Source: a virus
Lineage: Duplodnaviria > Heunggongvirae > Uroviricota > Caudoviricetes
Length of the DNA stretch: 15,670 nucleotides
Reading direction: 5' to 3' (one strand)
IMG/VR virus record: IMGVR_UViG_2693429623_000009
The notes under the pieces are model-generated. The model ran no database searches. It worked only from the letters and a program-made list of their open reading frames with translations, and was not told the DNA's origin. How positions within the stretch are numbered: the first letter of the stretch is position 1; every line of letters starts with the position of its first letter. A program made the translations under genes and the position numbers. Below are positions 13,001 through 15,427 of the stretch, in pieces.

Positions 13001-15427
13001 CCCTGAAGGACCGGCACACGGCGGTGGAGGTGAATTATACCGACCCGCAGAACGGCTGGCAGACCTCCACGGAACTGGTGGAAGACCCGGAAGCCATACT
13101 GCGCTACGGACGCAACCTGCTGAAGATGGACGCGTTCGGCTGTACCAGCCGCGGTCAGGCCCACCGTGCCGGACTGTGGGTGATAAAGACCGAACTGCTG
13201 GAAACGCAGACGGTGGATTTCACGCTCGGGTCTCAGGGGCTGCGGCACACACCCGGTGACATCATTGAAATCTGTGATAACGACTATGCCGGGACCCTGA
13301 CCGGCGGACGTGTCCTGTCCATTGATGCTGCCACCCGCACTCTGACGCTGGACCGTGAAGTGACACTTCCGGAGACCGGTGCCGCCACGGTGAACCTGAT
13401 TAACGGCAGCGGTAAGCCGGTGAGTGTGGACATCACCGAACACCCCGCGCCGGACCGGATACAGGTCAGTACCCTGCCTGATGGTGTGGAGACATACGGG
13501 GTGTGGGGACTCTCCCTGCCGTCACTGCGCCGTCGCCTGTTCCGCTGTGTCTCCGTCCGGGAAAACACGGACGGCACCTTTGCCATCACGGCGGTGCAGC
13601 ACGTACTGGAAAAAGAAGCCATCGTGGATAACGGTGCCCGCTTTGAGCCGCAGTCAGGTTCCCTGAACAGCGTCATCCCACCGGCAGTGCAGCACCTGAC
13701 GGCCAGTATCTGGCGCAGGCGAAATGGGACACGCCGCGGGTGGTGAAGGGTGTGCGCTTCAGTCTGCGCCTGACCAGTGGTAAGGGAACGGATGCCAGAC
13801 TGGTGACCACCGCCATCACCGCAGACACGGAGCACCGTTTCAGCGGCCTGCCGCTCGGGGAATACACCCTGACGGTGCGGGCGATAAACAGCTATGGCCA
13901 GCAGGGTGAACCTGCCACCACCACCTTCCGGATTGCCGCACCGGCAGCACCGTCGCGGATTGAGCTGACGCCGGGCTATTTTCAGATAACCGCCACGCCG
14001 CATCTTGCGGTTTATGATCCGACGGTACAGTTTGAGTTCTGGTTCTCGGAAAAGCGGATTGCGGATATCAGGCAGGTTGAAACCACAGCACGCTATCTTG
14101 GCACGGCGCTGTACTGGATAGCCGCCAGTATCAATATCAAACCGGGCCATGATTATTATTTTTACGTTCGCAGTGTGAACACCGTTGGCAAATCGGCATT
14201 CGTGGAGGCTGTTGGTCAGCCGAGTGATGATGCATCCGGTTATCTGGATTTTTTCAAAGGCGAGATAGGGAAAACCCATCTGGCTCAGGAGCTGTGGACG
14301 CAGATTGATAACGGTCAGCTTGCGCCGGACCTGGCTGAAATCAGGACGTCCATTACGAATGTCAGCAATGAAATCACGCAGACCGTCAATAAGAAACTGG
14401 AAGACCAGAGTGCGNNNNNNNNNNNNNNNNNNNNNATAACGGTCAGCTTGCGCCTGACCTGGCTGAAATCAGGACGTCCATTACGGATGTCAGCAATGAA
14501 ATCACGCAGACCGTCAATAAGAAACTGGAAGACCAGAGTGCGGCAATTCAGCAGATACAGAAGGTTCAGGTTGATACAAATAATAACCTGAACAGCATGT
14601 GGGCTGTGAAGCTGCAGCAGATGCAGGACGGACGCCTTTATATCGCGGGTATTGGTGCCGGTATTGAGAACACCCCTGACGGCATGCAGAGTCAGGTGCT
14701 GCTGGCGGCGGACAGGATTGCGATGGTTAATCCTGCGAATGGCAACACAAAACCGATGTTTGTTGGTCAGGGCGATCAGATATTCATGAACGACGTGTTC
14801 CTGAAACGCCTGACGGCCCCCACCATTACCAGCGGTGGAAATCCATCGGCATTTTCCCTGACTCCGGACGGAAAGCTGACCGCTAAAAATGCGGATATCA
14901 GTGGCAGTGTGAATGCGAACGCCGGGACGCTCAACAATGTCACGGTAAATGAAAACTGTACGATTAAGGGCATGCTGGAGGCGACTCAGGTCAGAGGTGA
15001 CTTCGTTAAAGCTGTATCCAAATCATTTCCGAAACAGGCTGGTACGTGGGGTAACACGGAAACACCAAACGGGACGGTTACAGTCACCATAAGCGATGAT
15101 CATAACTTTGACCGCCAGATTATTATTCCGCCCATTATTTTTAACGGTATAGCGTATGACGATCCGGGGAGCGGAAATAACCCAGGAGGCACGCGATACA
15201 CGGGTTATGGTTTTGAAGTTCGCAAAAACGGCGTATTAATCGCATCCAGAGAAACTAAAGGTGCCATTCCCGGTAGTTACAGTGCAGTTATTGATATGCC
15301 TAGTGGTGGTGGTAGCGTCACTCTGGAGTTTAAGATTTTCCAGAAAGGCAATCAGGGGGCAGGCAATATCACCGACTGTACGGTGATTGTGACCAAAAAA
15401 GCGGCTTCCGGCATCAGTATTCGTTGA
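10098..15427 (+). CDS. J: Central tail fibre / host-specificity protein J (lambda gpJ homologue), disrupted and partly duplicated as assembled
   Basis: ATG at 10098 with an AGGGGAAGG RBS ([22 protein letters not shown]..., lambda J-like). There is an in-frame TGA at 10299-10301, a 22-nt deletion frameshift near 11973, an N at 12158, a lambda-like patch at 12159-12727, an N at 12728, an exact duplicate of 10997-12157 at 12729-13889, and an N run at 14415-14435 flanked by a 107-bp direct repeat. The C-terminal frame (14597-15427) ends ...[14 protein letters not shown] then TGA at 15425-15427. Confidence 0.8.
12159..12727 (+). other. Lambda-like alternative-allele segment of J bounded by single N bases (12158 and 12728)
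   Basis: It encodes ...[72 protein letters not shown]...KPGHDY, which matches lambda J as I recall it and is paralogous to 11884 onward and 13616-14158 of the backbone allele. Confidence 0.75.
12729..13889 (+). repeat. Exact 1161-bp direct duplicate of J region 10997-12157
   Basis: Identical sequence at offset 1732. The duplicated six-frame ORFs have identical translations. Confidence 0.9.
14415..14435. other. Assembly gap (21 N) inside J, flanked by a direct repeat
   Basis: 14308-14414 matches 14436-14542 (107 bp, 2 mismatches) on either side of the N run. Confidence 0.95.

Follow-up and report, generated by a model that had tools for sequence, protein, structure and literature searches.

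The distal part of gene J and the spread of its allele

The window analysed here is a 15,670-nucleotide (nt) stretch, viral record IMGVR_UViG_2693429623_000009. It holds the tail module of a lambda-like prophage, whose last genes are J, which encodes the tail-tip protein, and then the start of lom. Our subject is the 3' part of J and the receptor-binding domain (RBD) at its end, which are laid out as follows; aa denotes amino acids.

14436-15427, plus strand: 3' part of gene J, within a scaffold piece here called D; an open frame from a run of N to the stop codon at 15425-15427, whose 329 aa correspond to about lambda J aa 839-1132, with a helical shaft that is longer than in lambda
14438-14596, plus strand: alternative, longer segment resembling an alpha-helical shaft (naming after PMC11101478), 34% identical over lambda aa 839-870; the same type is present in E2348/69 gpJ
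14543-14929, plus strand: Phage_Tail_Tip (PF09327), the beta-prism central straight fibre, by Pfam; 76% identical over lambda aa 871-985
15014-15421, plus strand: Ig_GpJ_C (PF12421), the RBD, by Pfam; 36-38% identical to that of lambda

The called open reading frame (ORF), 14597-15427, comprises 276 aa and contains the peptide that had been quoted in an earlier, sequence-only reading of this DNA. Its start at 14597 is merely the first ATG by ORF calling; the reading frame extends without a stop back to 14436, where it adjoins 21 consecutive N (14415-14435). The 329-aa translation from 14438 aligned with lambda J residues 839-1131 at 51% overall identity (E 4e-95). In Pfam, Phage_Tail_Tip scored 109.9 bits (gathering threshold, 22; E 1e-31) and Ig_GpJ_C scored 91.9 bits (gathering threshold, 26.2; E 5e-26), with the match reaching the last residue; lambda J's own Ig_GpJ_C score is 247 bits. 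At the nucleotide level, piece D is 98.2% identical to gpJ-lom of E. coli LD93-1, and the last 156 aa of its J contain a single difference from those of the sequenced phages Evi and 2B8. Gene order agrees as well, since lom starts at 15498, after J, and the order K, I, J, lom is likewise annotated in LD93-1 and E2348/69. The region 14436-15427 very probably encodes the C-terminal fibre and RBD of a lambda-type tail-tip protein J, from a discrete, very common and already sequenced non-lambda allele class of Escherichia prophages.

To place the allele, we surveyed 243 phage records matching the last 156 aa of J. It was present at no less than 95% aa identity in 72 of them (96-99% over these 156 aa). 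At a threshold of at least 90%, the number was 74 (two of them between 90 and 95%); no record fell between 60 and 90%, and the other 169 were below 60%. Because the interval from 60 to 90% is empty, RBD alleles form discrete classes, and the window RBD falls, at 90% or more over the last 156 aa, in the class of Evi, 2B8, mEp460, cdtI, and 2851. Carriers are Evi, 2B8, ev207, ev243, mEp460, mEp332, cdtI, 2851 (Stx2c), Ayreon, Stx2a_WGPS6, and several PhiR phages, and they include converting-phage records for Stx1a, Stx2a, Stx2c, Stx2d, and Stx2k.

The cassette core was defined as 307 nt (window positions 14984-15290), with L001 positions 3476-3790 as its lambda counterpart. The core was found in 2,104 of 5,426 complete E. 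coli genomes (39%), nearly all at 90% nt identity or more and with up to 7 copies per genome, while the lambda cassette was found in 98 of the 5,426 (1.8%), always at 99% identity or more, with laboratory strain J53 among the three records listed. The textbook lambda allele is the unusual one in E. coli, and, given these frequencies, differing from lambda is the normal state for J in this species. The phage-record and genome counts both show a common, known allele. Among species-representative genomes, the class is confined to Escherichia save for one 1350-nt contig, JAGZNZ010000056.1. The RBD encoded by this contig, which is filed under a metagenome-assembled genome of a 'Collinsella sp.', is 99% identical to that of the window; the contig almost certainly derives from an E. 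coli prophage and was mis-binned. Four main J clusters had already been noted among gut lambdas (Mathieu et al., PMC6969025); the allele and its domain family have already been documented, as have its behaviour as a cassette and the link with the choice of receptor.

Divergence from lambda J and the predicted loops

For a residue-by-residue comparison, J of NC_001416 served as the lambda reference, and ranges are given in lambda aa numbering. Identity was 76% in the beta-prism fibre (aa 871-985) and 68% at aa 964-1000. Over aa 986-1132, 38% of the lambda span and 40% of the aligned columns were identical, and the Pfam RBD span, aa 1001-1132, gave 36-38%. The indels in the RBD adjoin residues ~1012 (+2 aa), ~1043-1049 (+6), ~1077, and ~1100-1107 (-2 and -6). 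The sequence-only reading had held that the J C-terminus differs strongly from that of lambda and that the divergent region is the part that contacts LamB in lambda. Both statements are borne out: the last ~147 aa are 38-40% identical, so high identity to lambda was not seen, and the domain is the LamB binder in PMC11101478 and PDB entry 8xcj. Near-identity to lambda J over aa 986-1132, loops included, would mark a LamB-specific allele; instead, identity was 38-40%, and each of the four variable blocks contained indels.

At the DNA level, similarity to lambda ends at 14983 and similarity to E2348/69 J ends at 14959, which puts the exchanged core at about 14960-15276. The long helical shaft (14438-14596; J aa ~840-900 in the relative) is common to the window, LD93-1, and E2348/69, the last with its 1A2-like RBD. 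Since this shaft is found with different RBD classes, shaft type and RBD type appear to assort independently.

Sequence matches in the PDB ran through the last residue, to gpJ of A8 (9wca/9wcb; E 2e-97) and to lambda gpJ (8xcj and 8iyk; E ~1e-88). A single-sequence AlphaFold model was discarded at a predicted local distance difference test (pLDDT) score of 53. The AF2 model built from a 12-sequence alignment had a mean pLDDT of 69; in the RBD, 10-residue blocks were mostly at 70-95, with ~51 in the second variable loop, and pLDDT was low in the fibre part, as is to be expected when a trimeric prism is modelled as a monomer. The top four Foldseek hits to this model were 8xck (lambda fibre), 9wca (A8 fibre), 8xcj (gpJ-LamB), and 9wcb (A8 gpJ-OmpC), with E values of 4e-17 to 3e-14. 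In the structural comparison that the sequence-only reading had proposed as a check, the predicted fold thus matches solved gpJ RBDs.

We then aligned the RBD across seven lineages: the window, lambda, A8, two 1A2-like sequences, and two further ones from a protein search. The strands are conserved across all seven, as are three loops (DDHxFDRQ, KNG, and IDMPxGxG). Alternating with the conserved loops are four gap-rich hypervariable blocks, which lie in predicted loops:

15032-15070, plus strand: variable loop block 1, a 2-aa insertion relative to lambda, next to residue 1012
15146-15199, plus strand: variable loop block 2, 6 aa inserted near lambda residue 1049; low model confidence
15245-15277, plus strand: variable loop block 3, an indel near lambda residue 1077
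15341-15376, plus strand: variable loop block 4, shorter than that of lambda, residues 1100-1107

Among 1,207 natural J homologues, indel hot spots have been reported at lambda residues 1012, 1049, 1077, and 1107 (PMC6646904), and our four blocks coincide with them in position. In lambda, the bottom loops L1-L4 of the Ig-like RBD enter the LamB trimer, and the spreading of the RBD base is relayed via the fibre and opens the tail tip (PMC11101478); the text of that paper gives no residue numbers for L1-L4. Because the variable blocks are placed between conserved elements and match the published hot spots, we equate them with these loops: they may well be the bottom loops L1-L4 of lambda gpJ, with the conserved loops forming the top, fibre-facing side. 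By analogy with lambda and the A8 chimera, three RBD copies would insert their variable loops into an outer-membrane protein, and the docking signal would pass up the conserved fibre framework so that the tail tip opens. With the contact loops all replaced, the receptor or the binding mode would probably be other than lambda's LamB interaction.

State of the J locus

The J region of the window, 10098-15427, measures 5.3 kb, compared with 3.4-3.5 kb for a normal J, and is made of four N-separated pieces that map to overlapping parts of one J:

10098-12157, plus strand: piece A, J nt 1 to ~2087; an E2348/69-like allele (96% nt identity); codon 68 reads TGA for TGG, and 22 bp are deleted at ~11964
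12159-12727, plus strand: piece B, J nt ~1789-2357 (569 nt; lambda aa 597-785); another allele, 96% nt and 97% aa identity to lambda
12729-14414, plus strand: piece C, J nt ~900-2613; the same allele as A, identical over 10997-12157, including the 22-bp deletion
14308-14414, plus strand: end of piece C; 107 nt that recur, with 2 mismatches, at the start of piece D (14436-14542)
14415-14435, no strand: scaffold join of C and D, a run of 21 N
14436-15670, plus strand: piece D, J nt ~2507 to the end, plus lom
15450-15476, plus strand: terminator-like hairpin and T run in the J-lom gap, seen in the sequence
15498-15670, plus strand: 5' part of lom (Ail/Lom outer-membrane protein), continuing beyond the window end

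A continuous J ORF of ~1130-1165 aa is absent; the four overlapping pieces, the stop at codon 68, and the 22-bp deletion take its place, which may be an assembly artefact. Compared with the 96%-identical intact gpJ of E2348/69, the allele of pieces A and C carries TGG>TGA at codon 68 (10299-10301) and a frameshifting 22-bp deletion between CTGACGG repeats (~11964, and again ~13696). These lesions mark either a dead J of a cryptic prophage or sequence errors. The intact E2348/69 relative has a 1A2-like RBD, not that of the window. The sequence-only reading had described the upstream J domains as lambda-like. At the protein level, these domains are 72-76% identical to lambda; they lie on other N-separated scaffold pieces and form no continuous gene with piece D.

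A genuine tandem duplication in J, which the 107-nt repeat might imply, was rejected: every repeat boundary in J and in the tape-measure gene H falls at an N, and the pieces map onto a normal 3.5-kb J, as at a scaffold join. Piece B is flanked by pieces that are only ~75% identical to lambda, and it looks like a contig of a second, nearly lambda-identical prophage placed in the scaffold. The H region, 2717-7398 (N at 3997, 5199, 6049-6125, and 7228), likewise consists of overlapping divergent pieces joined by N; examples of such overlaps pair 2913-3996 with 3993-5076 (83%), 4495-4782 with 5200-5487 (94%), and 4985-5198 with 5672-5885 (99%). The '1137-aa' and '463-aa' ORFs called in this region are probably scaffold artefacts. 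As judged from its sequence, the window is a scaffold of concatenated contigs from several lambdoid prophage copies.

We give an even chance to the view that the domain at this locus is a non-functional remnant or an assembly chimera, that is, part of a dead J or a piece D that came from another prophage copy; the gene as written would then yield no tail fibre bearing this tip. It is consistent with J and H both being made of N-separated overlapping pieces, with the stop codon and the deletion of the upstream allele relative to its intact E2348/69 relative, with the 2 mismatches in the 107-nt overlap of C and D, and with the different, 1A2-like RBD borne by intact relatives of the upstream allele; partial J proteins are moreover abundant in draft assemblies. 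Nonetheless, the frame of piece D is uninterrupted and lies 1 of 156 aa from J of Evi and 2B8, and in a draft of low quality both the stop and the deletion could have arisen from sequencing or assembly errors. Furthermore, a remnant or chimera would concern this genome only, leave the function of the allele class unaffected, and be compatible with any of the receptor assignments considered below. The RBD copy itself appears intact, but the J pieces to which Ns join it contain a stop codon and a frameshifting deletion, which makes it uncertain whether it functions in this genome; a working J cannot be asserted here.

Upstream of J, the A+T-rich spacer that separates it from gene I (9755-10097) is unusually long, ~340 nt where lambda has ~60 nt, and only part of it aligns with E2348/69. 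It contains a strong hairpin at about 9965-9998 (CCCCGGTATC...GATACCGGGG) and may be a small moron or regulatory insert. An Rfam scan of 9500-15670 returned no match.

Receptor of the allele class and comparison with known systems

The C-terminal part of gpJ sets host specificity. The phage 434 tail-fibre gene in place of lambda J leads to OmpC binding (summarised in PMC11101478). Natural gpJ C-termini fused after lambda aa 964 have likewise yielded the OmpC-specific chimeras A8 and 1A2, a retargeting from LamB to OmpC (PMC11338833). Since natural swaps of this very segment retarget lambda, a different receptor is a reasonable inference for the window allele, and it is plausible because all four variable loops are replaced in the domain that binds LamB in lambda. 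Going by these sequence differences, the receptor or binding mode of the class is, on balance, probably not lambda's LamB interaction. The statement in the sequence-only reading that the fibre probably targets another receptor can be kept to this extent: the divergence lies in the LamB-binding domain and the variable loops are replaced. Of this particular locus it cannot be said, as J is fragmented here with lesions upstream.

GenBank host fields list K-12 strains for phages of this class, and the receptor is therefore present on K-12. K-12 expresses LamB, which fits the idea that the divergent RBD keeps LamB, or another maltoporin-like surface, by a different loop chemistry, in which case the receptor identity would bring no host-range difference. 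Unrelated GpJ C-terminal domains of other siphoviruses also bind LamB (bioRxiv 10.64898/2026.04.02.716166), and the identity of the RBD to lambda (40%) is about equal to its identity to the OmpC binders. We consider retention of LamB unlikely, however: the length and sequence of all four variable loops are unlike those of lambda, in lambda itself a few point changes in this region are enough to give OmpF use, with residues 1012 and 1107 required (PMC6646904), and the natural C-terminal swaps tested to date led to OmpC, not LamB (PMC11338833).

Recognition of OmpC, as by the A8, 1A2, phage 434, and Gifsy-1 alleles, is a special case of a different receptor, and we regard it as a tentative possibility. 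OmpC is bound by every characterised natural non-lambda allele of the domain family that we found and is reliably expressed in the gut (PMC11338833). In the seven-lineage alignment, RBD identity was 40% to lambda, 44% to A8, 43-44% to the 1A2-like sequences, and 43-51% to the two other lineages, so that the window RBD is marginally nearer A8 than lambda; its long second loop is also as in A8. On the other hand, the sequence is unlike both A8 and 1A2, 44% identity with different loops is no basis to transfer specificity, and no data for this RBD class were found in the literature searched. Identity of the allele with OmpC-binding A8 or 1A2 was ruled out by RBD identities of 44% and 43%, and the PMC11338833 supplement held no exact-string match. 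That the class binds a receptor not yet assigned to any lambda-type J, neither LamB, OmpC nor OmpF, seems doubtful.

Several points weigh against our reading of the domain and its receptor. The RBD is about equally near the LamB binder (40%) and the OmpC binders (43-44%), so that sequence gives no direction. Searches of the literature, also by peptide string, turned up no receptor for the allele, and none is given in the work covered on mEp460, on Gifsy-1, on the SNIPE phage panel, or on the lambdas of Mathieu 2020. The proposed bottom-loop assignment depends on published hot-spot positions and on a monomer model whose confidence is moderate. Finally, the linkage of C and D is insecure, given their 107-nt overlap with 2 mismatches, and the best complete-genome match of merged C and D is 93.6%, compared with 96.7% for C alone and 98.2% for D alone.

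As a discovery, the allele carries little weight: hypervariability of the J C-terminus, cassette exchange, and the receptor link are established, and dozens of phage records already contain the allele, as do ~39% of complete E. coli genomes. Its practical value lies in the class being far commoner than that of lambda and present in Stx1, Stx2a, Stx2c, Stx2d, and Stx2k converting phage records. Knowledge of its receptor would serve host-range prediction of temperate coliphages and the engineering of lambda-based delivery particles. If the receptor were indeed neither LamB, OmpC nor OmpF, temperate and Stx-converting siphophages would have a major way into E. coli that is still unmapped. The window is also an example of the fragmentation that J and the tape-measure gene H undergo when strains carrying several lambdoid prophages are assembled in draft form.

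Among known systems, the closest are Evi, 2B8, ev207, mEp460, mEp332, cdtI, 2851, Ayreon, Stx2a_WGPS6, and the PhiR phages, which share the RBD allele and the J-lom order. These phages have an intact J in complete genomes, whereas J of the window is split over scaffold pieces. Lambda gpJ (P03749; 8iyk, 8xck, and 8xcj; LamB) has the same domain order of shaft, beta-prism fibre, and Ig-like RBD and the same Pfam families; its fibre is 76% identical, and the RBD framework and intervening loops are conserved. It differs in the RBD (38-40%), in the length of the four variable loops, and in the shaft, which is longer in the window and 34% identical, and its cassette is rare in E. coli.

A8 gpJ (PMC11338833; 9wca, and 9wcb with OmpC) is a natural E. 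coli prophage C-terminus swapped in after lambda aa 964. No PDB chain matches better in sequence, and the fold agrees, but its RBD is 44% identical with different loops, and OmpC specificity is shown for A8 only. The 1A2 or E2348/69-type J (OmpC of EDL933) belongs to the same family, and E2348/69 J is the closest intact relative of the upstream pieces and shares the long shaft; its RBD, in contrast, is of another class, 43% identical. For the Salmonella protein Gifsy-1 J, binding to OmpC, BtuB, and OmpX has been reported; it is a J of lambda type whose N-terminal part is conserved and whose receptor-binding C-terminal part diverges (PMC12312913), but it comes from another host genus; the nearest Salmonella match to the window RBD is Fels-1, at 46%.

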